Shown in pieces: positions 1,937-26,571 of a stretch of 32,000 nucleotides of DNA; position 1 is the stretch's first letter, and the number at the start of each line of letters is the position of its first letter. Source of the DNA: Flavobacteriaceae bacterium (lineage in GTDB: Bacteria > Bacteroidota > Bacteroidia > Flavobacteriales > Flavobacteriaceae). Both the position numbers and the translations under genes were made by a program. The notes beneath the pieces were generated by a model. That model worked only from the letters and a program-made list of their open reading frames with translations. It was not told the origin of the DNA and made no database searches. The stretch covers positions 870,001-902,000 of the forward strand of contig OZ245049.1 of the NCBI GenBank assembly GCA_965224465.1, written 5' to 3'.

Positions 1937-2119
1937 TTAAGCTCTTTCCAAAAGGCCCCATCTACTTTTGCTAGCTTGAGTTTTTTTAAATAAACGTGCT
2001 GTGTTTACATACGTGGTTCTGTATTCCTGAGTACAAAACACTTTTGTCCATACACCTAATTTACTTAAATACATTTTTAAGTACTCATAACCGTTGTGTC
2101 GTAAGCGTACCGTATCCAT
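1937..2119 (-). CDS. Hypothetical small protein (60 aa), doubtful
   Basis: ATG-initiated ORF in otherwise non-coding DNA. No recognisable motif; could be a gene fragment or a chance ORF. Confidence 0.2.
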   Translation of the reverse strand: MDTVRLRHNGYEYLKMYLSKLGVWTKVFCTQEYRTTYVNTARLFKKTQASKSRWGLLERA

Positions 2120-2288
2120 AGCAATTATTATTTATATTCTTAGGATAAAACAGACCCCTAGTAAAATCCTTGCTTAATTCATACTTTTAAAAAGCAAAAA
2201 AAACAGGAATCCCCCTTTAGGATAAGCATGTAAACAAAATTAACCAGAATTAAAAACACAAGAATTCACGCGCATAACATTATTTTTA

Positions 2289-2296
2289 TATATTTG
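2289..2296 (+). promoter_or_regulatory. Candidate -7 promoter element (TATATTTG) upstream of the Hcp-like gene
   Basis: Exact TAnnTTTG match about 155 nt upstream of the ATG at 2452. No clear -33 element. Confidence 0.25.
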
Positions 2297-2451
2297 ACCT
2301 ACGATTAAAAACAGACACGCCCTAATAACAAGCACTCCCTACATTGTGAACTAGATGGATATACCATCAAGTTTGGAATTCTTATTGTGAGAATATTACG
2401 TATTACAAAACATTGACATACGCAAACAACTTAATAGAACAAAAAAATAAT

Positions 2452-3138
2452 ATGGTAAAAGCAATATTAATAATAGATGGAAAAGAAGTAAACGTACGTT
2501 GGTTTACTATCAAATTTAATCAAGGAGCAAATCCTAACGGCAGACCTTCTCAAATTCCAGTATTTGTAGGTTTTAAACTAATTATAGAAACTAGAAAAGA
2601 CCTAAACCTAGCTGAATGGTCCTTTTCCTCCAGACAAGCAAAGCAGATCATCTTACATATAAAACCAGTTATTATTGGAGGAAAAACAAGAAAAATATTT
2701 TTCTATGACTGCCATCTTGTAAATTGGAAAACCAATTTTTCTTCTACAGGTTCAGATCCAATGACGGAAACTTTAGAAATCACCTGTGCTGGTGTTGAAG
2801 ATTCTAACTCGTTTGGTGTGTATTCTGCATCTTGGAGAGTTACGTATCCAGCAATAGAGGTTGAAGCTACTACTCTAGAAGAAAACAATAAAGAAATCAC
2901 ACGTTATTATTTAACAAACCCAGAAGGCGAACGCATCGTAGATTATAATGAGGATGATATAATTATAGTAAACACGGAAACCCAAAATCGCATAGGAGAT
3001 GTTTTAACTATAAACTTAGACGATCCTGAGTATGATTTTGAATACAATGGAATTTTACTCATTAATGATTCTCTTGAAATTGTTATTCAAAATAATTTAG
3101 AACTAACAGAATTAAAAGTAGTTGAACAAAATAAATAA
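2452..3138 (+). CDS. Hcp/TssD-like tube-protein domain (aa 1-130) with a ~98-aa C-terminal extension
   Basis: Start placed at ATG 2452; the track ORF begins at an upstream TTG. MVKAILIIDGKEVNV..F.I.FNQ....NGRPS......GF.L.IE...D..LAEW......K.I.L.......GK...I.F.D..LV.W...F...G..PM.E.LEI follows the conserved-residue spacing of Bacteroidota TssD. Residues 131-228 have no counterpart in canonical ~130-aa TssD. Confidence 0.6.
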   Translation: MVKAILIIDGKEVNVRWFTIKFNQGANPNGRPSQIPVFVGFKLIIETRKDLNLAEWSFSSRQAKQIILHIKPVIIGGKTRKIFFYDCHLVNWKTNFSSTGSDPMTETLEITCAGVEDSNSFGVYSASWRVTYPAIEVEATTLEENNKEITRYYLTNPEGERIVDYNEDDIIIVNTETQNRIGDVLTINLDDPEYDFEYNGILLINDSLEIVIQNNLELTELKVVEQNK

Positions 3139-3877
3139 AGAGTAATGACTAAATTAAAAAAAACTGGTTTTAGAATAACATTTGAAGACGGTGAAACTAG
3201 GACTATATACTTACAACCTATTGCGAACAAAAAATGTTCTATTAGGTTTGAGGCAGATAAATCAGACATCATAAATGGTATATTTGGTTTCGATGAGATC
3301 CCTTATAACGACAAATCCCCTGAAAAAAGAACAAAAAAACTATCTGAAATTTGTTTCTCTGACATCCATAAATTAAAAGATGAATACATACCTATTACCG
3401 TAGAAGGTAAAGAATACTTAGCCCCGTGGATCAGTATCAGAAAAGACCAAACAATCACTTTGGATGTGATTCTGAAAATCAAAAAAGAAGAGGAATATCA
3501 AAGTATTGTTTTTGAAGAACATCCTGATTTTACGATAATACCTATAGATAAGAAAGGAACTAAAGTTGATTTAAAAAAAGCTAAAAAAATAAAAATAACC
3601 TGTAATAACACCAACCAAAAAACCGTTCAAATAAAAATAATAGCAGACGAAAAAGAGGCAGGAGCAATAAATTTTTGGTATCCAAAACCAAAAACTATTG
3701 ACCTAAAATGGTATTTCATTGAGCTAACAGGTAACGATAAAGACAATGATGATTTAAAACATAAAATAGACCGATCTAAATTAGAAGCATTACTAAAAAA
3801 AGGTTTAAACCCTGCCTTAATTGATGTTAACATTCTAAATAAAAATGCCGAAATAATTGACATGACCGAATATGCTA

Positions 3878-5003
3878 GCTGAATTCAAGTCACAAACGCA
3901 ACTTTTAGTTAAATAATAATTGTTCCATTACAAATATAGGGTTTTGATATTTATGTCTCTTCCTAGGTCTGTTATTTAATTTTGTTTCTACCTCTTTGAT
4001 TCTTTGATCTGTTAGGTTTGTAAAGTCACTTCCTTTGGCAAAATATTGTCTAATCAAACCATTTAAATTTTCGTTAGATCCTCTTTCCCAAGAGTGATAT
4101 GGATGCGCAAAAAAGTAATCAATACATAAATTTTCTGCAACCTGCTCATGGCCTGCAAATTCTTTTCCATTATCAGCTGTTATAGTATGTAGATAAGGCT
4201 TCCAGTCTTCTAATATTTCATTGATAGCTTTAGTGACAACAACTGCTTCTTTAGAGCTTACTTTTTTCATTTTAAGCATTCCAGAAGCTCTATCATTTAC
4301 GGTAAGTATGGCTTGATTATGGTTTTTACCTATGATTAAATCGACCTCTAAATCTCCAAATCGATTTCTTTGTTCAACAACTTCAGGGCGTTGTTCTATA
4401 CTAATACGATTCTTTATAACCCCTCTAGAATCCTTTGATGAGCCACGTTTTCTATATCTCCTTCCCTGTCTGCGAAGGTGTGTATGTAAATCACCATCAT
4501 TCCTCTTGTCTTCCCTAATATGCTGATATATACGCTCAATAGACACCGTTTCTTTACCTTGTTTTTTTAGGACACCAACTACTTGCTCAGGACTATAATC
4601 GTCTCGCAATAACAACTCTATTGCTTGTTGAATATCTTCTGTAAAGCGTTTTCTTTTAGGCTTTTCTTTATGACGTTTAGCATACTTTTTTTGGGCTAAT
4701 TCATGCTTGTAAACTCCATTTCTTTTGTCTGAATTACGCTTAATCTCTTTGCTAATAACAGACTTGTCTTTTCCTATAGCAGCTGCTATCTCAACCTGTT
4801 TATAACCTTGTTTTAACATGCAACAAATTGTGTATCTTTGCGCTTGGGTGATGTGTTTCATACAACTTCTTTTTTCGAGATTTGAGACCGTAAGATACAT
4901 ATCCATCAAGACAAGAAAGGTAGGTTTTCCTACTTTTCTGTTTTGAAAATATAACCATCATAGAATCAAATCGAAAAGTTGCGTTTATTAGTTGAATTTA
5001 AGA
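3878..5003 (-). mobile_element. IS30-family insertion sequence, copy 1 (1126 bp)
   Basis: About 99% identical (nine substitutions counted by eye) to 25446..26571. Imperfect ~27-bp terminal inverted repeats: 3880..3906 TGAATTCAAGTCACAAACGCAACTTTT versus the reverse complement of 4974..5000, TTAAATTCAACTAATAAACGCAACTTTT. Flanked by a 2-bp direct repeat TA (3876-3877 and 5004-5005). Confidence 0.9.
3905..4861 (-). CDS. IS30-family DDE transposase
   Basis: N-terminal HTH (QRYTICCMLKQGYKQVEIAAAIGKDKSVISKEIKRN). Catalytic core reads FGDLEVDLIIGK...ITADNGKEFAGH...FAHPYHSWERGSNENLNGLIRQYF...LNNRPRK, the classic IS30 signature. Start set at MKHITQAQ (ATG 4861); the track ORF extends to 4909. Confidence 0.9.
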   Translation of the reverse strand: MKHITQAQRYTICCMLKQGYKQVEIAAAIGKDKSVISKEIKRNSDKRNGVYKHELAQKKYAKRHKEKPKRKRFTEDIQQAIELLLRDDYSPEQVVGVLKKQGKETVSIERIYQHIREDKRNDGDLHTHLRRQGRRYRKRGSSKDSRGVIKNRISIEQRPEVVEQRNRFGDLEVDLIIGKNHNQAILTVNDRASGMLKMKKVSSKEAVVVTKAINEILEDWKPYLHTITADNGKEFAGHEQVAENLCIDYFFAHPYHSWERGSNENLNGLIRQYFAKGSDFTNLTDQRIKEVETKLNNRPRKRHKYQNPIFVMEQLLFN

Positions 5004-5478
5004 TATTAAATATTTTAAAAAAAGAAATATCATCAAAAAACAAGGAAGGTATACTTATATTGAAAGTGATAAAAAAGAATTATTTTCTGGAGCTGTACAA
5101 CAATTTTCAAAACCAGATCATAACATTGTAAACCTCTACATTACAAACCGTACATGTATAAATACAGATGAACTAAATAATGAAAATAAAACTTTTGATG
5201 CAGTTGCAGGTTTTTCTCCTGTCAATACAGGTGTTGCTTTTGGAATTTTAGAACCGAATGATCAAAAACTTTTACCAACCGCAGTTATGCACGAAATAAT
5301 GCATGCTTTAGGCTTAAAACACACATTTACGGAAGGTGAAGAGGGTGATTTAGGAAAAAAACATGTATTTAAACTAAAAAGCAGTACTAATTATATGGAC
5401 TATAAAAAAAGAAAGGAGTTTACTTGGAAATGGCAATGGGAGAAATTGCACAATTATTCACACTTAAAATAACCGATT

Positions 5479-6171
5479 ATGAAATTCTTATATTTTACTA
5501 TTAGTAGCATCTTATTTATTTCTTGTAGCTCTCTACCAAAGGAATATCTAACTACCAATAACAGTTGTTATTATAATGATCCTATTTTTAAAATCACAAA
5601 AGATGAAATGGTTTTTGACGTTAAAAAATATGGTAAAAAACTTGAAGAAGGTGATTTAGTTTTAGTTGATAATCCGAATTTTAAAAACTTATATTATCAA
5701 TGGGCAAAAGATAAAGACATAATGAACATACAAAGTAATAAAAACCTTCGTATTGACAAAAACATTGGTTTTTATCCAAATGGAAATATACAATATAGTA
5801 ATTTTGAATATGTTAATGGAGATACCAAAATAGGTAAAGAAACAGATTACAATCAACAAGGCAATATAACCAAAGTAATAGATTATGAAAAAGGCTATCA
5901 AATATGTTGGACAGAAGCTATTGAAATTGTAAAACAAATAGCTAAAAAAGATATCAAAAAATACAACGTCACTAGTTTTAATCTTCTGCGAAATAATATG
6001 AATGAATTTCCTGACCTAAAACCAGAATGGGAAATCACTTTGAACGGAAATGAAGAATATGAAGAAAAAAAATATTCTAAAAAAGGTAAAAAGATTTATA
6101 TTATTGATGGTATCACAGGGGGTTTAACAAATATAAAAGCGATTAGAATGATCTATCCTGGTATGGAGTAA
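5479..6171 (+). CDS. Secreted lipoprotein-like protein, array copy 1 (candidate immunity protein; variant A)
   Basis: 230 aa. Signal peptide with Cys (SSILFISC-SS). Starts 6 nt after the metallopeptidase stop. The central aa 52-125 are variable and MORN/YwqK-like (YPNGNIQYSNFEYVNGD...). The C-terminal TEAIEIVKQIAKKDIKKYNVTSF...EWEITLNG...KKIYIIDGITGGL resembles a PepSY fold pattern. Confidence 0.8.
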   Translation: MKFLYFTISSILFISCSSLPKEYLTTNNSCYYNDPIFKITKDEMVFDVKKYGKKLEEGDLVLVDNPNFKNLYYQWAKDKDIMNIQSNKNLRIDKNIGFYPNGNIQYSNFEYVNGDTKIGKETDYNQQGNITKVIDYEKGYQICWTEAIEIVKQIAKKDIKKYNVTSFNLLRNNMNEFPDLKPEWEITLNGNEEYEEKKYSKKGKKIYIIDGITGGLTNIKAIRMIYPGME

Positions 6172-6311
6172 TTACATATTTAAAAAAAAGAAATAGCATC
6201 AAAAAAACAAGGAAGGCATACTTATATTTAAAGTAATAAAAAAGAAAGGAGTTTACTTGGAAATGGCAATGGGAGAAATTGCACAATTATTCACACTTAA
6301 AATAACCGATT
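6172..6311 (+). pseudogene. Toxin-gene ghost 1 (5' ~65 nt joined to 3' ~70 nt of the toxin C-part; catalytic core absent)
   Basis: Aligns to ~5009..5078 and then directly to ~5411..5478. The junction lies in the microhomology ATAAAAAAGAA. About 333 nt, including HEIMHALGLKH, are missing. An in-frame TAA (TATATTTAA versus TATATTGAA) makes it non-coding. Confidence 0.8.
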
Positions 6312-7001
6312 ATGAAATTCTTATATTTTATTATTAGTAGTATCTTATTTATTTCTTGTAGCTCTCTACCAAAGGAATATCTAACTACCAATAACAGTTG
6401 TTATTATAATGATCCTATTTTTAAAATCACAAAAGATGAAATGGTTTTTGACGTTAAAAAGTATAAAGACACATTGGATAAAGGGCGTTTAGTTTTTACA
6501 AAACGTAATAATTTAAAAAATAATTTTCATAAATCTAAAGATGGAAGTATAACTTTTAAACAAACAAACAAGCGATTAAATATTCAAAGGACAATTGAAT
6601 ATGATAAAAAAGGCAATATATTATTATCTTACTTTAAGTATTTAAATGGTAGTTCGTATCTAAAAAAAGAAACATCCTATGACCAACAAGGCAATATAAC
6701 CAAAGTAATAGATTACGAAAAAGGCTATCAGATATGTTGGACAGAAGCTATTGAAATTGTAAAACAAATAGCTAAAAAAGACATTGAAAAATACAACGTC
6801 ACTAGTTTTAATCTTTTGCGAAACGATATGAATGAATTTCCTGACCTAAAACCAGAATGGGAAATCACTTTGAACGGAAATGAAGAATATGAAGAAAAAA
6901 AATATTCTAAAAAAGGTAAAAAGATTTATATTATTGACGGTAACACAGGGGATTTAACAAATATAAAAGCGATTAGAATGATCTATCCTGGTATGGAGTA
7001 A
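6312..7001 (+). CDS. Secreted lipoprotein-like protein, array copy 2 (variant B)
   Basis: 229 aa. The first 51 aa and last ~105 aa are near-identical to copy 1. The centre is unrelated in sequence (KDTLDKGRLVFTKRNNLKNNFHKSKDGSITFKQTNKRLNIQRTIEYDKKGNILLSYFKYLNGSSY). Confidence 0.8.
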   Translation: MKFLYFIISSILFISCSSLPKEYLTTNNSCYYNDPIFKITKDEMVFDVKKYKDTLDKGRLVFTKRNNLKNNFHKSKDGSITFKQTNKRLNIQRTIEYDKKGNILLSYFKYLNGSSYLKKETSYDQQGNITKVIDYEKGYQICWTEAIEIVKQIAKKDIEKYNVTSFNLLRNDMNEFPDLKPEWEITLNGNEEYEEKKYSKKGKKIYIIDGNTGDLTNIKAIRMIYPGME

Positions 7002-7140
7002 ATACATGTTTAAAAAAATAAATATCATCAAAAAAACAAGGAAGGCATACTTATATTTAAAGTAATAAAAAAGAAAGAAGTTTACTTGGAAATGGCAATG
7101 GGAGAAATTGCACAATTATTCACACTTAAAATAACCGATT
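7002..7140 (+). pseudogene. Toxin-gene ghost 2
   Basis: Same composition and same deletion junction as ghost 1. Confidence 0.8.
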
Positions 7141-7833
7141 ATGAAATTCTTATATTTTACTATTAGTAGCATCTTATTTATTTCTTGTAGCTCTCTACCA
7201 AAGGAATATCTAACTACCAATAGCAGTTGTTATTATAATGATCCTATTTTTAAAATCACAAAAGATGAAATGGTTTTTGATATTAAAAAATATGGTAAAA
7301 AACTTGAAGAAGGTGATTTAGTTTTAGTTGATAATCAGAATTTTAAAAATGAATATTATAAATGGAAAGGAGATAGTAAGATTACAAATAGCCAAATTAA
7401 CAAATCGTTAAATATCAAGAAACTTATAAAATATGACGAAAAAGGCAACATATTATTTTCTTACTTTAAGTATTTAAATGGTAGTACGTATCTAAAAAAT
7501 GAAACATCCTATGACCAACAAGGCAATATAACCAAAGTAATAGATTACGAAAAAGGCTATCAAATATGTTGGACAGAAGCTATTGAAATTGTAAAACAAA
7601 TAGCTAAAAAAGATATCAAAAAATACAACGTCACTAGTTTTAATCTTTTGCGAAACGATATGAATGAATTTCCTGACCTAAAACCAGAATGGGAAATCAC
7701 TTTAAACGGAAATGAAGAATATGAAGAAAAAAAATATTCTAAAAAAGGTAAAAAGATTTATATTATTGATGGTATCACAGGAAATTTAACAAATACAAAA
7801 GCGATTAGAATGATCTATCCTGGTATGGAGTAA
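7141..7833 (+). CDS. Secreted lipoprotein-like protein, array copy 3 (A/B chimera)
   Basis: 230 aa. The centre starts like copy 1 (GKKLEEGDLVLVDNQNFKN) and ends like copies 2/4 (KYDEKGNILFSYFKYLNGSTYLKNETSYDQQGN). Confidence 0.8.
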   Translation: MKFLYFTISSILFISCSSLPKEYLTTNSSCYYNDPIFKITKDEMVFDIKKYGKKLEEGDLVLVDNQNFKNEYYKWKGDSKITNSQINKSLNIKKLIKYDEKGNILFSYFKYLNGSTYLKNETSYDQQGNITKVIDYEKGYQICWTEAIEIVKQIAKKDIKKYNVTSFNLLRNDMNEFPDLKPEWEITLNGNEEYEEKKYSKKGKKIYIIDGITGNLTNTKAIRMIYPGME

Positions 7834-7972
7834 ATACATATTTAAAAAAATAAATATCATCAAAAAAACAAGGAAGGCATACTTATATTTAAAGTAATAA
7901 AAAAGAAAGAAGTTTACTTGGAAATGGCAATGGGAGAAATTGCACAATTATTCACACTTAAAATAACCGATT
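7834..7972 (+). pseudogene. Toxin-gene ghost 3
   Basis: Same composition and same deletion junction as ghosts 1 and 2. Confidence 0.8.
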
Positions 7973-8662
7973 ATGAAATTCTTATATTTTACTATTAGTA
8001 GCATCTTATTTATTTCTTGTAGCTCTCTACCAAAGGAATATCTAACTACCAATAGCAGTTGTTATTATAATGATCCTATTTTTAAAATCACAAAAGATGA
8101 AATGGTTTTTGACGTTAAAAAGTATAAAGACACATTGGATAAAGGGCGTTTAGTTTTTACAAAACGTAATAATTTAAAAAATAATTTTCATAAATCTAAA
8201 GATGGAAGTATAACTTTTAAACAAACAAACAAGCGATTAAATATTCAAAGGACAATTGAATATGATAAAAAAGGCAATATATTATTATCTTACTTTAAGT
8301 ATTTAAATGGTAGTTCGTATCTAAAAAAAGAAACAACCTATGACCAACAAGGCAATATAACCAAAGTAATAGATTACGAAAAAGGCTATCAAATATGTTG
8401 GACAGAAGCTATTGAAATTGTAAAACAAATAGCTAAAAAAGACATAAAAAAATACAACGTCACTAGTTTTAATCTTCTGCGAAATGATATGAATGAATTT
8501 CCTGACCTAAAACCAGAATGGGAAATCACTTTGAACGGAAATGAAGAATATGAAGAAAAAAAATATTCTAAAAAAGGTAAAAAGATTTATATTATTGATG
8601 GTATCACAGGAAATTTAACAAATATAAAAACCATTAGAATGATCTATCCTGGCATGGAGTAA
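7973..8662 (+). CDS. Secreted lipoprotein-like protein, array copy 4 (variant B)
   Basis: 229 aa. Differs from copy 2 at only a handful of residues (positions 7 and 28, ETS/ETT, DIE/DIK, GNTGD/GITGN, KAI/KTI). Confidence 0.8.
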   Translation: MKFLYFTISSILFISCSSLPKEYLTTNSSCYYNDPIFKITKDEMVFDVKKYKDTLDKGRLVFTKRNNLKNNFHKSKDGSITFKQTNKRLNIQRTIEYDKKGNILLSYFKYLNGSSYLKKETTYDQQGNITKVIDYEKGYQICWTEAIEIVKQIAKKDIKKYNVTSFNLLRNDMNEFPDLKPEWEITLNGNEEYEEKKYSKKGKKIYIIDGITGNLTNIKTIRMIYPGME

Positions 8663-8799
8663 ATACATGTTTACAATCACCAAAAATGTTCGTATAGTGT
8701 GTAGCCCCAAGAAGTAATACCGTGTTAAGCATGCTGCCTCAAAAGAGGAAACTATAGGATTTGCGTAGTGTAATAAAAGAGCTATCGAAAGTACCTCCA

Positions 8800-8848
8800 C
8801 TCTCTACCAAAAGAATATCTAACTATCAATAACAGTTGTTATTATAAT
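8800..8848 (+). pseudogene. 49-nt fragment of a fifth lipoprotein gene copy (codons ~17-33 only)
   Basis: CTCTCTACCAAAAGAATATCTAACTATCAATAACAGTTGTTATTATAAT matches the SLPKEYLTTNNSCYYN-coding segment of the array genes. There is no start codon or signal-peptide portion upstream. Confidence 0.7.
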
Positions 8849-8918
8849 TTTATTAATGCATGATAACGCTTTTAGAAATAATGAAACAAACTAAAAACAC
8901 TCATAAAAAAAACTTAAA

Positions 8919-9608
8919 ATGAAAAATAGATATAAAATAATAATTACGATAATTACCATAGCGATTATACTAATCTGTATTTTTGTATATGGATTGTTTA
9001 GATATGAATGGAATAACTATGCAATTGGTAAGACATATGAAATACAAGGAATATCTGATGTTATTGAAAAAGGTGATTTAATTATTTTCACAACAATAAA
9101 TCCTTATTTATTTATATCAAATGACGCAGGAAAAACATGGAGTATAAAAATGTTTAACCTCAATGAAGATGAAAATATTTTTAACGGCTTAGGTATAACA
9201 AAAGAAACAATCTCTTTTATTTCAAAAAAGAATTCAGATGGTGATACGTCTCCTCAATTTTTATATATAAGTACTGATAATGGTAGTAATTGGAGCAAAA
9301 AAAACATTGAGAAAATATTGTGTTTTAATAGAAACCTTTCGAATGAATCTGTTTCAATCAATAATGGGATTTTAGAGTGTTTTGACTTTGATAAAAATGT
9401 TACTCATTACTCTAATGATTATGGAAAAACATGGAAAGAAACCAACCAAAGAATAGGTGAATTAGAAAACATAAAATTTTCAAAAACAGCAAAAAACAAC
9501 ACTTATTTTGTTAGAAAATACAACAAGAAAACAAATGAATTCAACTCGTTATTTTCTATTAAAAAAGAGTTTGAAATTAATTTATTTGGAGATATTAGAT
9601 TTAAATGA
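8919..9608 (+). CDS. Membrane-anchored BNR/Asp-box repeat protein
   Basis: 229 aa. N-terminal TM helix (IIITIITIAIILICIFVYGLF). Three Asp-box-like motifs: SNDAGKTWS, STDNGSNWS, SNDYGKTWK. Confidence 0.6.
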   Translation: MKNRYKIIITIITIAIILICIFVYGLFRYEWNNYAIGKTYEIQGISDVIEKGDLIIFTTINPYLFISNDAGKTWSIKMFNLNEDENIFNGLGITKETISFISKKNSDGDTSPQFLYISTDNGSNWSKKNIEKILCFNRNLSNESVSINNGILECFDFDKNVTHYSNDYGKTWKETNQRIGELENIKFSKTAKNNTYFVRKYNKKTNEFNSLFSIKKEFEINLFGDIRFK

Positions 9609-9771
9609 TAAATATAAAGGCTCCATTAAAAGAACTTGATAAACCACTAAATTACATACCATCATGTTTAGGATTGTAATTGGAATAACAGACATTACAA
9701 CCTGTTTATAAGAGATTTACTAAAAAAAGCCCCTTATAATCAATTTAAAAATATAACTATTGAAAGAGCTA

Positions 9772-10392
9772 TTACAAAAAATCTGTATCCCCTTTTCCTT
9801 CTCTTAATATTTCAATTTCGTCTTGTGATAAATCAATAATAGTCGAAGCTTGATTTCCTCCATAGCCACCATCAATAATCACATCTACAATATCTCCCCA
9901 TTTTTCATTTATCAATTCTGGATCTGTCGTATACTCAATCACATCATCCTCGTCTCTAATAGAGGTAGAAACAATGGGATTCCCCAATGCTGCAACCAAG
10001 GTTCTAATAATTGCATTATCTGGTACACGAATCCCTACGGTTTTTCTATGTTTAAAGGCCTTGGGCAAACTATTACTAGCTGGCAATACAAAAGTATAAG
10101 GCCCAGGTAAGGCTTTCTTTAAAATTTTATATGTAGGTGTATCAATCTGTTTTACGTAATCAGATAAATTACTCAAATCGTGGCATATAAATGAAAAATT
10201 TGCTTTGTTTAATTTTATCCCTTTTAAACGCGCTACTTTTTCCATCGCCTTTGTATTGGTAATATCACAGCCCAATCCATATACTGTATCTGTAGGAAAA
10301 ATAATCAATCCTCCTTTTTTAAGAATTGTTACAATTTTCTCTATTTCACGTTCGTTTGGATTCTCTTCGTATATTTTAATAAATTTTGCCAT
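9772..10392 (-). CDS. tsaC: L-threonylcarbamoyladenylate synthase (YrdC/TsaC type)
   Basis: MAKFIKIY...GGLIIFPTDTVYGLGCD...LKGI...PGPYTFVLP...VGIRVPDN are YrdC-family hallmarks. Start set at ATG 10392; the track ORF extends to 10434. Confidence 0.8.
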   Translation of the reverse strand: MAKFIKIYEENPNEREIEKIVTILKKGGLIIFPTDTVYGLGCDITNTKAMEKVARLKGIKLNKANFSFICHDLSNLSDYVKQIDTPTYKILKKALPGPYTFVLPASNSLPKAFKHRKTVGIRVPDNAIIRTLVAALGNPIVSTSIRDEDDVIEYTTDPELINEKWGDIVDVIIDGGYGGNQASTIIDLSQDEIEILREGKGDTDFL

Positions 10393-11205: not shown

Positions 11206-12771
11206 TTATATTAACGGAATTTTCACAATAAGCGTACTTCCTTTTCCTTTTTCGCTCTCTACATGAATACTTCCTTGGTGTATCTCTACTATTTTTTTTA
11301 CATATGATAGTCCCAGTCCATGTCCTTTTACGTTATGAATATTTCCTGTTTCTTCTCTATAGAATTTTTCAAAGATGTTCTTTTGAACATTATGATTCAT
11401 TCCAATGCCTTTATCTTTTATTTTAATGATAATATACTTTGCCGTATTTTCTGTATACACATCAATACGAGGAGGATCTGGCGAATATTTAATGGCATTA
11501 TCCAACATATTTACTATAATATTAGTGAAATGAAATGGATTCCCCAAAAACTCAGTTAAAACAGCCTCTAAATGCAACTCAATCTTTCCATCACGTTCCT
11601 CTAATAGCAAGTGAATATGTGACATGGCATCATCTAATAAATCGTGCATATCCACAGCTTCCTTTGTAACATCCAATTGATTTTTCTCCAATTTAGAAAT
11701 CCGAAGCACATTTTCCACTTGAGCATGCATCCGTTTATTTTCCTCTCGAATCATTTTCACATAGCGTTGTACCTTTTCAGCATCACCAATTACCTTTGGA
11801 TTTTTTATAGCATCTAAAGCTAAATTAATGGTAGCTATCGGAGTTTTAAATTCGTGCGTCATATTATTGATGAAATCTGTTTTGATCTCCGAAATCTGTT
11901 TTTGTTTGATCAATTGATACAAGGCAGTGACAAAGGCTATTATAATTATCAGAATAAAAAATATAGACAACAACAAATTTCGTTGAATGGAGGAAACTAT
12001 ATATTGTTCTTTGGACGGAAAACTTACAAATAAATCATAATTGCTCTCCCCTTCGCTATTGGTAAACATAGATACTTGGTAACTCCTCCCTTTTTCCTTT
12101 CTAAAATAACCAGATTTAATTTTGGTGGCTAGTCCATTGTTATAAATTCCGTATTTAAAATCAGTTTCTATACCTCTATTTTTTAATTCCTTGTCTAATT
12201 CTAGACGCAGCTCCCTATTACTCACCCTTCTACTTATAGGCAAACGAGAAACTGTAACATCAATAACACTAAGGAATTCTGCCCTTTCAGAAGCATCAAA
12301 ACGCCCCACTTTTACAAATCGTTCTGTTGCAGTTTCTGTGATAAAATCACCATCAGTATGGACATGACTAAAAATAATGACTTCTTCTTTACTATAAATC
12401 TTTTTGAAATTTATGGAGTCATCTTCAAAAAAATCAGTCGGAATTTTATAATTTTCCTCCAAAATACTTCGAGAATATAAAAACCGTTGATTATTTACGG
12501 TATCGATTTGTTCAAAAACAAAATTTCTAATATCAGAAGGCTTGTATTTTTTTTTGGTTTCTACTAATTTAGAAAACCGCTTAAAGTACCCATCAAATTC
12601 ACGTTGCGTAATGTTTTGAGAAACATTTGCCAATGCAAAGATAACATCGCTAGAAAATTGTTTTTCTCGAATGTCTAATGTATTTTTAATCCAACTAACT
12701 TGCACAAAAATAATTCCGATCAAGGCAATACTCATTAGAAAACTAATCAGGAAAAATGTTTTTTTACCCAT
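11206..12771 (-). CDS. Sensor histidine kinase
   Basis: Two TM segments, H-box NMTHEFKTPIATI, and N/G boxes (NAIKYS, DKGIGM, GHGLGLSYV). Lies 6 nt upstream of the regulator gene. Confidence 0.85.
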   Translation of the reverse strand: MGKKTFFLISFLMSIALIGIIFVQVSWIKNTLDIREKQFSSDVIFALANVSQNITQREFDGYFKRFSKLVETKKKYKPSDIRNFVFEQIDTVNNQRFLYSRSILEENYKIPTDFFEDDSINFKKIYSKEEVIIFSHVHTDGDFITETATERFVKVGRFDASERAEFLSVIDVTVSRLPISRRVSNRELRLELDKELKNRGIETDFKYGIYNNGLATKIKSGYFRKEKGRSYQVSMFTNSEGESNYDLFVSFPSKEQYIVSSIQRNLLLSIFFILIIIIAFVTALYQLIKQKQISEIKTDFINNMTHEFKTPIATINLALDAIKNPKVIGDAEKVQRYVKMIREENKRMHAQVENVLRISKLEKNQLDVTKEAVDMHDLLDDAMSHIHLLLEERDGKIELHLEAVLTEFLGNPFHFTNIIVNMLDNAIKYSPDPPRIDVYTENTAKYIIIKIKDKGIGMNHNVQKNIFEKFYREETGNIHNVKGHGLGLSYVKKIVEIHQGSIHVESEKGKGSTLIVKIPLI

Positions 12772-12858
12772 GAAACAAATTTAATATTTTAACATCTACA
12801 TGCACTGTTTTTAACCAATATTAACACCGATTGACGTTCTTTAACAGTATTTTAAGAG

Positions 12859-15398: not shown

Positions 15399-16337
15399 TT
15401 ATAACAATCCTCTCCCTATTTTATTAAGTCTTTTTGATTTATCAAATTCTTTTGCAATTTTATCTAAAACTCCATTGATAAAGAAACTACTCTTTTCTGT
15501 AGAATAATCTTTCGCAATCTCAATATATTCGTTAATAGTTACGCGTGTAGGAATGCTCGGGAATTTTAAAAATTCACAAATAGCCATTTTAATTAATATT
15601 AAATCTACATCTGCAATACGTTCCATATCCCAGTTAGGTGTTCTCTGGTCTACTTCTTCGCTTAGCATTCTATCATTTAGTACTGTTTTTCTAAATAAAT
15701 CAGATACATATTTTTTATCATCTTCATCCTTGTACAGACTTCCTATATAAATACCTTTTAAAGGAGTTAATTGATTCAATGTTTTTGAAACCCATGTATT
15801 TACAAACGGAATATCATCTACCCAACTAATGTTCTTGTCTTCAAAATAATCTGCAATTTTCTCATTTGGCGCCACTATTTCTTTAAACATACGAACAATA
15901 AAATCTTTGTCCAATTCAAAACTATCATTTTTATCGGCCATATAGGTCTTGTAAAAATCAGTTTCCTTTGTGTTTTTCCAAACAACTTTTACGTAGTCAC
16001 TATCCAAATACCAGTTATTCAACTTATGCTCATCAATATACAAAGCAAGAGAATTACTCTCGTTTAATAATTGAATCACTTTATTATTAATAAACTTTGG
16101 ATTGGGATTTAATTCTTCTTTAGTCGCAAGAAACTTTTTCTGAGAAGCGGATAAAAAATCACGTTCCATGTTTCTCACTTCAACCAACAAACTTAAAAGC
16201 AATACATACATGTCTTGCATTTTGTCTACACTTAGTTTCAATAGCTTTTCTTCTCTTATCAGGTCATCATTTTTGGATTGATGCATTGCGTATACAGATT
16301 GCATAACCTTTACTCGTATGTGGCGTCTATTAATCAT
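15399..16337 (-). CDS. nusB: Transcription antitermination factor NusB (long Bacteroidota form)
   Basis: MINRRHIRVKVMQSVYA N-terminus. C-terminal NusB core (DVDLILIKMAICEF...P..V.INEYIEIAK.YS...S..FINGVLDK). Confidence 0.8.
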   Translation of the reverse strand: MINRRHIRVKVMQSVYAMHQSKNDDLIREEKLLKLSVDKMQDMYVLLLSLLVEVRNMERDFLSASQKKFLATKEELNPNPKFINNKVIQLLNESNSLALYIDEHKLNNWYLDSDYVKVVWKNTKETDFYKTYMADKNDSFELDKDFIVRMFKEIVAPNEKIADYFEDKNISWVDDIPFVNTWVSKTLNQLTPLKGIYIGSLYKDEDDKKYVSDLFRKTVLNDRMLSEEVDQRTPNWDMERIADVDLILIKMAICEFLKFPSIPTRVTINEYIEIAKDYSTEKSSFFINGVLDKIAKEFDKSKRLNKIGRGLL

Positions 16338-25070: not shown

Positions 25071-25445
25071 GACGTAGTATTTTTTCGAGTGTACTTTTCC
25101 CTCTTTAGTTATCAAATTAATCTGATACAATCCATTTTTTAATCCACTTAACAATTCCTTATTACTGGTTGCATTATTAATCTTCTGAGTACTTAATTTC
25201 GTTACTTCACTCGTGCGTATATTTACTGCTGTCCAAATTCATGAACTAATACTTTTTTCGATGAATACTTATCTTCAACAACTAATGTATATTTACCCCT
25301 TTGAGCAAAAGCTTCATAACCACTAATACCTCCGTTTACATATATTTTATAATTCGCTTGTTTATCATAAAATGAAGTTGGCCAAGTACTTTTAGTTCTA
25401 TAGTCATTTAGATTTGTAAAATGATAAAGACTATTTTTAAATACA

Positions 25446-26571
25446 GCTGAATTCAAGTCACAAACGCAACTTTTAGTTAAATAATAATTGTTCCATTACA
25501 AATATAGGGTTTTCGTATTTATGTCTCTTCCTAGGTCTGTTATTTAATTTTGTTTCTACCTCTTTGATTCTTTGATCTGTTAGGTTTGTAAAGTCACTTC
25601 CTTTGGCAAAATATTGTCTAATCAAACCATTTAAATTTTCGTTAGATCCTCTTTCCCAAGAGTGATATGGATGCGCAAAAAAGTAATCAATACATAAATT
25701 TTCTGCAACCTGCTCATGGCCTGCAAATTCTTTTCCATTATCAGCTGTTATAGTATGTAGATAAGGCTTCCAGTCTTCTAATATTTCATTGATAGCTTTG
25801 GTGACAACAACTGCTTCTTTAGAGCTTACTTTTTTCATTTTAAGCATTCCAGAAGCTCTATCATTTACGGTAAGTATGGCTTGATTATGGTTTTTACCTA
25901 TGATTAAATCGACCTCTAAATCTCCAAATCGATTTCTTTGTTCAACAACTTCAGGTCGTTGTTCTATACTAATGCGATTCTTTATAACCCCTCTAGAATC
26001 CTTTGATGAGCCACGTTTTCTATATCTCCTTCCCTGTCTGCGAAGGTGTGTATGTAAATCACCATCATTCCTCTTGTCTTCCCTAATATGCTGATATATA
26101 CGCTCAATAGACACCGTTTCTTTACCTTGTTTTTTTAGGATACCAACTACTTGCTCAGGACTATAATCGTCTCGCAATAACAATTCTATTGCTTGTTGAA
26201 TATCTTCTGTAAAGCGTTTTCTTTTAGGCTTTTCTTTATGACGTTTAGCATACTTTTTTTGGGCTAATTCATGCTTGTAAACTCCATTTCTTTTGTCTGA
26301 ATTACGCTTAATCTCTTTGCTAATAACAGACTTGTCTTTTCCTATAGCAGCTGCTATCTCAACCTGTTTATAACCTTGTTTTAACATGCAGCAAATTGTG
26401 TATCTTTGTGCTTGGGTGATGTGTTTCATACAACTTCTTTTTTCGAGATTTGAGACCGTAAGATACATATCCATCAAGACAAGAAAGGTAGGTTTTCCTA
26501 CTTTTCTGTTTTGAAAATATAACCATCATAGAATCAAATCGAAAAGTTGCGTTTATTAGTTGAATTTAAGA
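25446..26571 (-). mobile_element. IS30-family insertion sequence, copy 2 (1126 bp)
   Basis: Same orientation as copy 1 and ~99% identical to it. Flanked by a 2-bp direct repeat CA (25444-25445 and 26572-26573). Confidence 0.9.
25473..26429 (-). CDS. IS30-family DDE transposase
   Basis: Differs from the copy-1 protein at two residues (V/I in VVG(V/I)LKKQG; Q/E in KY(Q/E)NPIF). Confidence 0.9.
   Translation of the reverse strand: MKHITQAQRYTICCMLKQGYKQVEIAAAIGKDKSVISKEIKRNSDKRNGVYKHELAQKKYAKRHKEKPKRKRFTEDIQQAIELLLRDDYSPEQVVGILKKQGKETVSIERIYQHIREDKRNDGDLHTHLRRQGRRYRKRGSSKDSRGVIKNRISIEQRPEVVEQRNRFGDLEVDLIIGKNHNQAILTVNDRASGMLKMKKVSSKEAVVVTKAINEILEDWKPYLHTITADNGKEFAGHEQVAENLCIDYFFAHPYHSWERGSNENLNGLIRQYFAKGSDFTNLTDQRIKEVETKLNNRPRKRHKYENPIFVMEQLLFN

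Follow-up and report, generated by a model that had tools for sequence, protein, structure and literature searches.

Organization of the Locus

We analyzed a 32-kb stretch of contig OZ245049.1 from a member of the Flavobacteriaceae (the window; all coordinates are window positions). Its locus of interest comprises a gene for an Hcp tube protein of a type VI secretion system (T6SS), an effector gene, four paralogues of a predicted immunity gene, and three remnants of the effector gene, here called ghosts, each placed between two of the paralogues. All of these features lie on the forward strand. The Hcp/TssD gene, which is of the Bacteroidota type (2413..3138; Pfam PF17642 TssD, E 1.3e-22), is directly upstream of the effector gene. 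The latter is divided by an insertion sequence (IS) of the IS30 family, which lies on the minus strand (3877..5003) and was recognized by its transposase (NCBIfam NF033563, E 1e-86), its inverted repeats, and a second copy in the window. The N-terminal part of the effector gene (3145..3876), delimited by its translation and by the alignment of the joined N- and C-terminal parts with homologues, is ended by the IS after 245 codons. The C-terminal part (5004..5472) encodes a metzincin-like toxin domain, with the motif HEIMHALGLKH specified by codons at 5290-5322, and is the parent sequence of the ghosts. It is followed by immunity paralogues 1 (5479..6171, 230 aa), 2 (6312..7001, 229 aa), 3 (7141..7833, 230 aa), and 4 (7973..8662, 229 aa), with the ghosts filling the spacers at 6172..6311, 7002..7140, and 7834..7972.

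Each of the four immunity open reading frames (ORFs) opens with a hydrophobic, lipoprotein-type signal ending in Cys. The adjacent gene at 2413-3138 provides the linkage to a TssD/Hcp protein of the PF17642 type that is characteristic of Hcp-associated effectors of the Bacteroidota-type system (T6SSiii). From the association with Hcp, the linkage of effector and immunity genes, and the lipoprotein signal, we infer that the effector and the 230-aa lipoprotein are a T6SS effector–immunity pair acting in the periplasm.

Structure of the Ghosts

The ghosts were mapped by BLAST of each spacer against the window and by local alignments. As the original prediction had proposed, every spacer consists of a piece of the toxin 3' part joined directly to the end of the toxin gene. 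The left arms match the toxin from 5005, 5010, or 5014 to 5079 (91.5-92.5% identity over 67-71 nt, E 6e-20 for all three spacers). The right arms match 5405-5478 (74 nt; identity 100% for spacer 1 and 98.6% for the other two; E 2e-38 to 5e-36), and beyond these two toxin segments no other part of the 32-kb window was matched by the spacer BLAST. Chance is far from explaining this two-part pattern. The source of the left arm (5005..5079) ends in the 9-nt sequence AAAAAAGAA (5071-5079), and the source of the right arm (5405..5478), which comprises the last 22 toxin codons and the 6-nt gap before the immunity start codon, starts with the same sequence (5405-5413). The arms overlap in this 9-mer, of which each ghost keeps a single copy (in ghost 1, the left arm spans 6171/6176-6246 and the right arm 6238-6311).

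The missing stretch amounts to 334 nt between the 9-mers or, if the ATAAAAAA 8-mers at 5069 and 5402 are counted, to 333 nt, and it holds the HEIMHALGLKH codons together with all invariant residues of the domain, in agreement with the loss of about 333 nt reported earlier. A 9-nt repeat at both ends, with one copy left at the junction, is what deletion between short direct repeats (by slippage or a microhomology-mediated process) leaves behind, and this mechanism had likewise been anticipated. The repeats that bound the lost core are A-rich Lys-Lys codons, and AAAAAAGAA ranks with the longest direct repeats of the toxin 3' part, the very longest being the 12-mer TAAAAAAAGAAA at 5016-5027 and 5403-5414; a deletion between its copies would drop the whole left arm and leave a 70-nt tail, as in several Tenacibaculum arrays.

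The three ghosts share the deletion junction and, relative to the toxin, a T>C change in GGTATAC, a G>T change that creates a TAA codon, a G>A change in GTGATAA, and one extra A in an A-run. The in-frame TAA noted previously is real in the frame of the left arm, and in the frame of the right arm TAA TAA stands just before the junction. With stops in both relevant frames and a frameshift, the ghosts are untranslatable. A second junction is also common to all of them: 11-13 nt after the immunity stop codon, beginning ATACATGTTTA, join the toxin at about 5014-5017 in a TTTA microhomology. The same short flank trails paralogue 4 (8663..8675) and is thus common to all four units, marking the junction of a tandem duplication. 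The repeated unit opens at about 5017, where the toxin domain starts, and closes 13 nt beyond the stop codon of the immunity gene, and both the deletion junction and the duplication junction had a single origin. The original prediction went further, stating that a unit was duplicated, lost its core, and only then was amplified. The single origin of the junction stands, but the order does not follow from it, because gene conversion or unequal crossing-over among the unit flanks would look alike.

It had also been suggested that arms of about 65 and 70 nt are retained for recombination with a full-length toxin gene, so that the downstream cassettes could swap the immunity gene behind the toxin. 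The arms are clearly homologous to the toxin gene, and recombination of orphan modules is real in Rhs loci, but the case demonstrated in Salmonella relied on 522 bp of 95% identical sequence (Koskiniemi et al. 2014, PMC3967940). Here, the left arm, 67-75 nt long, is about 92% identical to the toxin and its longest exact block is 15-16 nt, and a crossover between the toxin and the left arm of a ghost would cost the locus its catalytic core along with the first immunity gene and swap nothing. The right arm continues into exact blocks of 93-145 nt that reach into the immunity gene. It is the mere start of a longer identical immunity tract in which all the real homology lies, and a crossover there would only alter the copy number. 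Moreover, no full-length toxin gene is present, as the IS at about 3877-5003 already divides it, and essentially all homologues of the effector N-terminal domain carry the same C-terminal toxin domain, leaving no cassette-type polymorphism to serve. We regard such a use of the arms as very unlikely.

Two other functions of the ghosts were considered and dropped. A role as an internal promoter found no promoter-like signal to build on: in a scan of 4900-9000 for sigma-70 promoters and terminators, counts were at the shuffled expectation with none in the ghosts, and the Bacteroidota -7 motif TAnnTTTG is absent from them. A known RNA element was set aside as an Rfam scan of 2000-10000 at permissive E gave no match. 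The array is probably co-transcribed.

Flanks and Centers of the Immunity Units

Alignment of the four units showed that their first ~220 nt (right arm and immunity 5' end) and their last ~330 nt are 93-100% identical, while the central ~240 nt show only 52-60% DNA identity between center types. These hypervariable centers, at 5620-5860, 6450-6690, 7280-7520, and 8110-8350, correspond to immunity codons ~48-125. In the proteins, the copies share 96-100% identity with each other over residues 1-47 and 126-230, and at most 65% with other genomes, and residues 48-125 are 40% identical between types, which is no closer than to other genera. Paralogue 1 has a center of type A, paralogues 2 and 4 have identical centers of type B, and the center of paralogue 3 is a mosaic that is A-like, then unique, then B-like. 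Divergent centers inside near-identical flanks indicate that the array is not a simple recent amplification but is old or mosaic, with its flanks in concerted evolution. They further suggest that the centers are specificity-determining cassettes, kept distinct while the remainder evolves in concert.

All four immunity ORFs are intact, and in their C-terminal region pairs of copies differ by 5-8 synonymous and 2-4 non-synonymous changes (ratio of non-synonymous to synonymous differences per site, pN/pS, ~0.1-0.15). Intact frames and mainly synonymous differences make the four genes look functional. A search of PDB sequences with the immunity profile gave chance-level matches to SecA only.

The same alignment bears on whether the chimeric spacers could have been produced by a mis-assembled or collapsed tandem repeat. 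Repeats of ~830 nt are indeed prone to assembly errors. However, the units are told apart by very different centers and by scattered unit-specific substitutions, the four ORFs are intact, the source contig has 5.24 Mb, and an analogous structure occurs in an independent assembly (locus L015, see below), so that the chance of an artefact is practically negligible.

The Effector Gene and the Insertion Sequence

The ORF at 3145-3882 has no family match, and the open frame at 5002-5472, which encodes HEIMHALGLKH, has no start codon. When the translations of 3145-3879 and 5002-5472 were joined, 92-100% of the length aligned with Flavobacteriaceae proteins of 370-545 aa, showing that a single effector gene was simply interrupted by the IS at about codon 245. 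About half of these homologues are Hcp fusions, and in relatives of the window locus the Hcp domain is fused directly to the effector. The Hcp ORF of the window itself has 241 aa, of which only residues 15-129 form the TssD domain, the C-terminal ~110 residues being without a family match.

The transposase is encoded at 3905..4909 on the minus strand, and 25-nt inverted repeats lie at 3882-3906 and 4974-4998. The element is ~1.13 kb long, its ends being fixed by alignment with the second copy, ~99% identical, near 25.4-26.6 kb (25437-26570). No clear target-site duplication was seen around 3877-5003. The resident effector gene is inactivated by the insertion, and the strain seems to be immunity-only for this weapon. 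The IS falls at the boundary between the effector N-terminal part and the toxin domain, and its right end is ~14 nt from the tandem-duplication junction (toxin ~5017) that opens every ghost. In a 1.2-kb gene, such closeness would arise by chance in roughly 2-3% of cases; both the IS and the duplication junction may have been drawn to one hotspot, either the A/T-rich site or the domain boundary.

Neither the N-terminal part, nor the C-terminal part, nor the immunity protein belongs to a significant Pfam or NCBIfam family. Across 44 effector homologues, residues H97, E98, H101, H107, M132, and D133 of the C-terminal domain are invariant; G70 is also listed among the invariant residues, and G104 is conserved in at least 90% of the sequences. 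The invariant Met sits in NYMDY, 25 residues past the third His of HExxHxxGxxH. Sequence matches to metzincin families are confined to the HExxH motif, with Pfam scores below threshold (E 0.003-0.1) and a PDB profile match to astacin in the motif region only (E 0.02). In an AlphaFold (AF2) model of the domain (predicted local distance difference test score, pLDDT, 82), the best PDB fold matches found by Foldseek were all metzincins but weak, archaemetzincin being the best (E 0.07, template modeling score, TM, 0.47). The domain thus resembles metzincins such as astacin, adamalysin, fragilysin, and archaemetzincin in its HExxHxxGxxH motif, its conserved Met, and its top fold matches, and differs in its small size (~155 aa), in sequence scores below the Pfam thresholds, and in the weakness of the fold matches. 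Its placement among the metzincins is plausible but not established.

In a full-library HMMER search with the N-terminal part, 49 of the 50 N-domain homologues with C-terminal sequence carried HExxH, mostly ending in a KWQW tail; the exception, P0094, is apparently truncated. This suggests that the family does not exchange unrelated C-terminal toxin domains, of which no trace was found. Four homologues (P0092, P0093, P0097, and P0109) have 370-420 residues after the N-terminal domain, including a different, Lys/Tyr-rich C-terminal extension beyond the metzincin domain, and may be fusions with an additional domain.

Remnants of the Toxin Gene in Related Loci

We compared the window with ~30 loci of Flavivirga, Aquimarina, Tenacibaculum, Mariniflexile, Lacinutrix, Pseudotamlana, and uncultured Flavobacteriaceae. 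In nearly all of them, the effector homologue is followed immediately by a gene for a homologue of the 230-aa lipoprotein, and arrays of at least two immunity copies occur in 13. A metagenome scan with the immunity profile yielded only 5 loci, and loci L026-L033, found through effector homologues, contained no new ghosts.

Toxin remnants of several kinds lie within these arrays. The last 30-66 nt of the local toxin are present in immunity spacers of L008, L012, L013, L018, and L021 (54 nt, 100% identical, in L021), and a degenerate toxin fragment stands behind the second immunity copy of L024. A spacer of L025 holds a ~190-nt toxin fragment that starts just before the HExxH site. Its sequence at 499-663, between two immunity copies, reads …LLPVMHGLRLEH…, the HExxH codons having apparently been removed between two ATGCA(C/T) repeats, so that in L025, too, an orphan unit seems to have lost its catalytic site independently. 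No toxin remnant was detected in the array spacers of L002, L004, L005, L022, and L028.

The most telling of these loci was L015, from a metagenomic genome of an uncultured member of the Flavobacteriaceae, whose toxin is 37% identical to that of the window. Two of its units and a truncated third contain ~340 nt of intact toxin 3' sequence, and two others carry a two-part ghost. In this ghost, AAATAGGCAGTTATATAGAG(C/T)GCAGCAAAAAAC (…IGSYIERSKK) is joined directly to AAAAAACACACTTACAAATGG… (KKHTYKWQW…stop), with the junction inside an 8-9-nt repeat, CAAAAAAC(A), and 312 nt missing. The left breakpoint falls at the conserved YIE[RS]xKK site that is also used in the window, and the right one is ~3 codons off. 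Short-direct-repeat deletions are in no way unusual here except for this recurrence at equivalent Lys-Lys A-runs in a distant genome.

Common descent of the two kinds of ghosts was considered and rejected on three grounds: the unit boundaries differ (17 versus 4 codons upstream of YIE), the right breakpoints are ~3 codons apart, and each ghost matches its own toxin at 92-100% even though the toxins are only 37% identical. We conclude that the ghosts of the window and of L015 arose independently. As in the window, the junction repeat of L015 is also among the longest direct repeats of its segment, which gives the recurrence a simple mechanical explanation.

The likeness to orphan toxin–immunity cassettes drawn in the original prediction proved apt, and units with an intact toxin 3' part, which it had foreseen in related genomes, were found in L015. 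Its orphan fragments (12516-12853 and 15762-16103 of that locus) have intact frames of 113 codons, and their differences, both from the main toxin and among themselves, are mostly synonymous (proportion of synonymous differences, pS, 0.21-0.26; pN/pS 0.16-0.27). They have thus diverged under purifying selection, most simply as functional alleles elsewhere, and this means that import by recombination also contributes to arrays in this effector family. Their amino acid changes cluster in the loop just before HExxH (LNTEGHIDPK, LDPNGNIAPK, and LNAEGHIEHK), a candidate site of contact with the immunity protein.

This divergence of the L015 fragments, most simply in other strains, is what would be expected if older effector–immunity alleles were pushed downstream by horizontally acquired new alleles, the ghosts being the remains of displaced effectors. 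The distance between the immunity centers of the window, as great as that to the centers of other genera, speaks for the same process. Such displacement has been proposed for the T6SS arrays of Vibrio cholerae, with effector 3' ends moved downstream alongside orphan immunity genes, and it predicts that array members are closer to alleles of other genomes than to each other (Kirchberger et al. 2017, PMC5361080). In the window, the whole paralogues are 78-97% identical to each other and at most 61% identical to those of any other genome, and the right arms agree with the resident toxin at 99-100%. In addition, the duplication junction, the deletion junction, and the unit flanks are (near-)identical, which independent illegitimate insertions would not produce. 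Identical junctions and homogenized flanks point instead to tandem duplication in place with unequal crossing-over, and not to successive illegitimate insertions of unrelated modules. Displacement is therefore an unlikely source of the ghosts. Import by homologous recombination of the central immunity segments only is possible and is compatible with duplication in place.

Origin of the Ghosts

We propose, with a probability of about 0.7, that the ghosts are non-functional relics of orphan units, each made of a toxin domain and an immunity gene, in a T6SS effector–immunity array. Most likely, they reflect the ordinary decay of duplicated toxin–immunity units. The core would have been deleted in a single RecA-independent event, by replication slippage or microhomology-mediated end joining, and unequal crossing-over, gene conversion, or both would have carried the deletion junction to three units. 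Through the same exchanges, the unit flanks (~600 nt) would stay near-identical even as the middle of the immunity protein, which probably contacts the toxin, remains strongly divergent. As for the arms, the right one may have been kept as the native 5' leader of the immunity gene, and the left one would be a neutral leftover. The function of the locus would then reside in the immunity paralogues, which may give multi-allele protection, and not in the ghosts.

Several observations count against plain decay. Two equivalent breakpoints recur in two genomes with toxins that are only 37% identical, and the last 45-70 nt of the toxin are kept in about half of the arrays; selection could explain both. 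The right arm is also better conserved than the left one (0-1 versus 5-6 differences from the toxin), which fits a functional leader. However, the numbers are small, and gene conversion that starts at the 5' end of the immunity gene and spreads from there would account for the difference just as well. Finally, no close relative of the source genome was found, the window proteins being alone in their 90% identity clusters.

A selective account of these observations would hold that orphan toxin fragments are costly or risky, that A-run microhomologies make removal of the core fast and repeatable, and that the toxin tail serves each immunity paralogue as a functional 5' leader providing the translation start context. 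The independent, near-equivalent core deletion in L015, the apparent small deletion of HExxH between ATGCA(C/T) repeats in L025, the toxin tails ahead of immunity copies in L008, L012, L013, L018, and L021, and the conservation of the right arm (99-100% versus ~92% for the left one) all agree with it. Yet L015 retains intact 113-codon fragments, so removal is not obligatory, and the spacers of L002, L004, L005, L022, and L028 do without a toxin tail. Furthermore, recurrence is mechanically expected where the junction repeats are among the longest available, and the ghosts contain no promoter-like signal. On balance, selected detoxification with retention of a leader is doubtful.

A wider form of this idea seems quite unlikely. 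In it, removal of the core from orphan toxin fragments would be a recurrent selected step, with the Lys-Lys A-runs as a built-in pair of break points that turns toxin-domain–immunity units into harmless leader–immunity units, and with the toxin tail as an expression leader. Homogenized flanks would allow shuffling or import of the hypervariable centers, and the array would amount to a repertoire of immunity specificities directed at toxin alleles that circulate in the population.

Sequences Downstream of the Array

A 49-nt fragment of the immunity gene 5' region, 96% identical, lies at 8800..8848 on the forward strand (repeat family D3; tblastn match at 8801-8848) and is probably the remnant of a fifth unit. 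It is separated from the fourth unit by a unique, GC-richer stretch of 124 nt (8676-8799), and 8676-8848 as a whole resembles a fifth-unit stump broken up by foreign DNA. In a similarity check within the window, the stretch 8663-8810 occurred once, and its folding revealed no structure (z +0.7). Directly after the array, an ORF at 8919-9608 encodes a 229-aa protein with BNR/Asp-box repeats. It is weakly similar to Tli3, a family of T6SS immunity proteins (PF24316, E 5e-6), and may be an orphan immunity gene of another family.

Comparison with Known Arrays and Implications

The locus is alike to the V. cholerae arrays in having several immunity genes behind a T6SS effector, effector 3' pieces upstream of the later ones, and recombination mosaics. 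It differs in its Bacteroidota-type T6SS with an Hcp-linked effector, in immunity genes that are paralogues of one family, and in homogenized flanks with identical duplication junctions. With the orphan rhs-CT/rhsI and cdiA-CT/cdiI modules of Rhs and contact-dependent inhibition (CDI) systems, for which PMC5361080 cites a C-terminal displacement model by Jackson et al. 2009, it shares toxin fragments without a start or export signal that are situated downstream of the main gene, each with an immunity gene of its own behind it; the founder unit of the window also began at the toxin-domain boundary. In Rhs and CDI orphans, however, the toxin domain is intact, homology to the main gene extends over hundreds of bases, and recombination can reactivate the module, whereas the fragments of the window have lost the core, are interrupted by stop codons, and have no more than ~70 nt of homology left on the upstream side. 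Intact toxin fragments are found in L015 and not in the window. Unlike in those systems, the effector family has no unrelated exchangeable C-terminal domains.

The locus is thus of a known kind, an orphan immunity array with effector remnants, in a previously undescribed toxin family. As the ghosts are probably functionless, their value lies in the evolutionary mechanism that they record and not in new biology. In an effector family for which there is no Pfam or NCBIfam model, the growth and decay of an array can be read base by base, from tandem duplication at the toxin-domain boundary, through core loss between short repeats, to homogenized flanks with diverged centers, and the window together with L015 shows that ghosts of this kind can form independently of each other. 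Of greater interest are the hypervariable centers between homogenized flanks, the recurrence in L015, and the immunity-only locus made by the IS. A strain hit by an IS in its effector gene that keeps four immunity variants under purifying selection offers a testable case of the defensive retention of orphan immunity genes.

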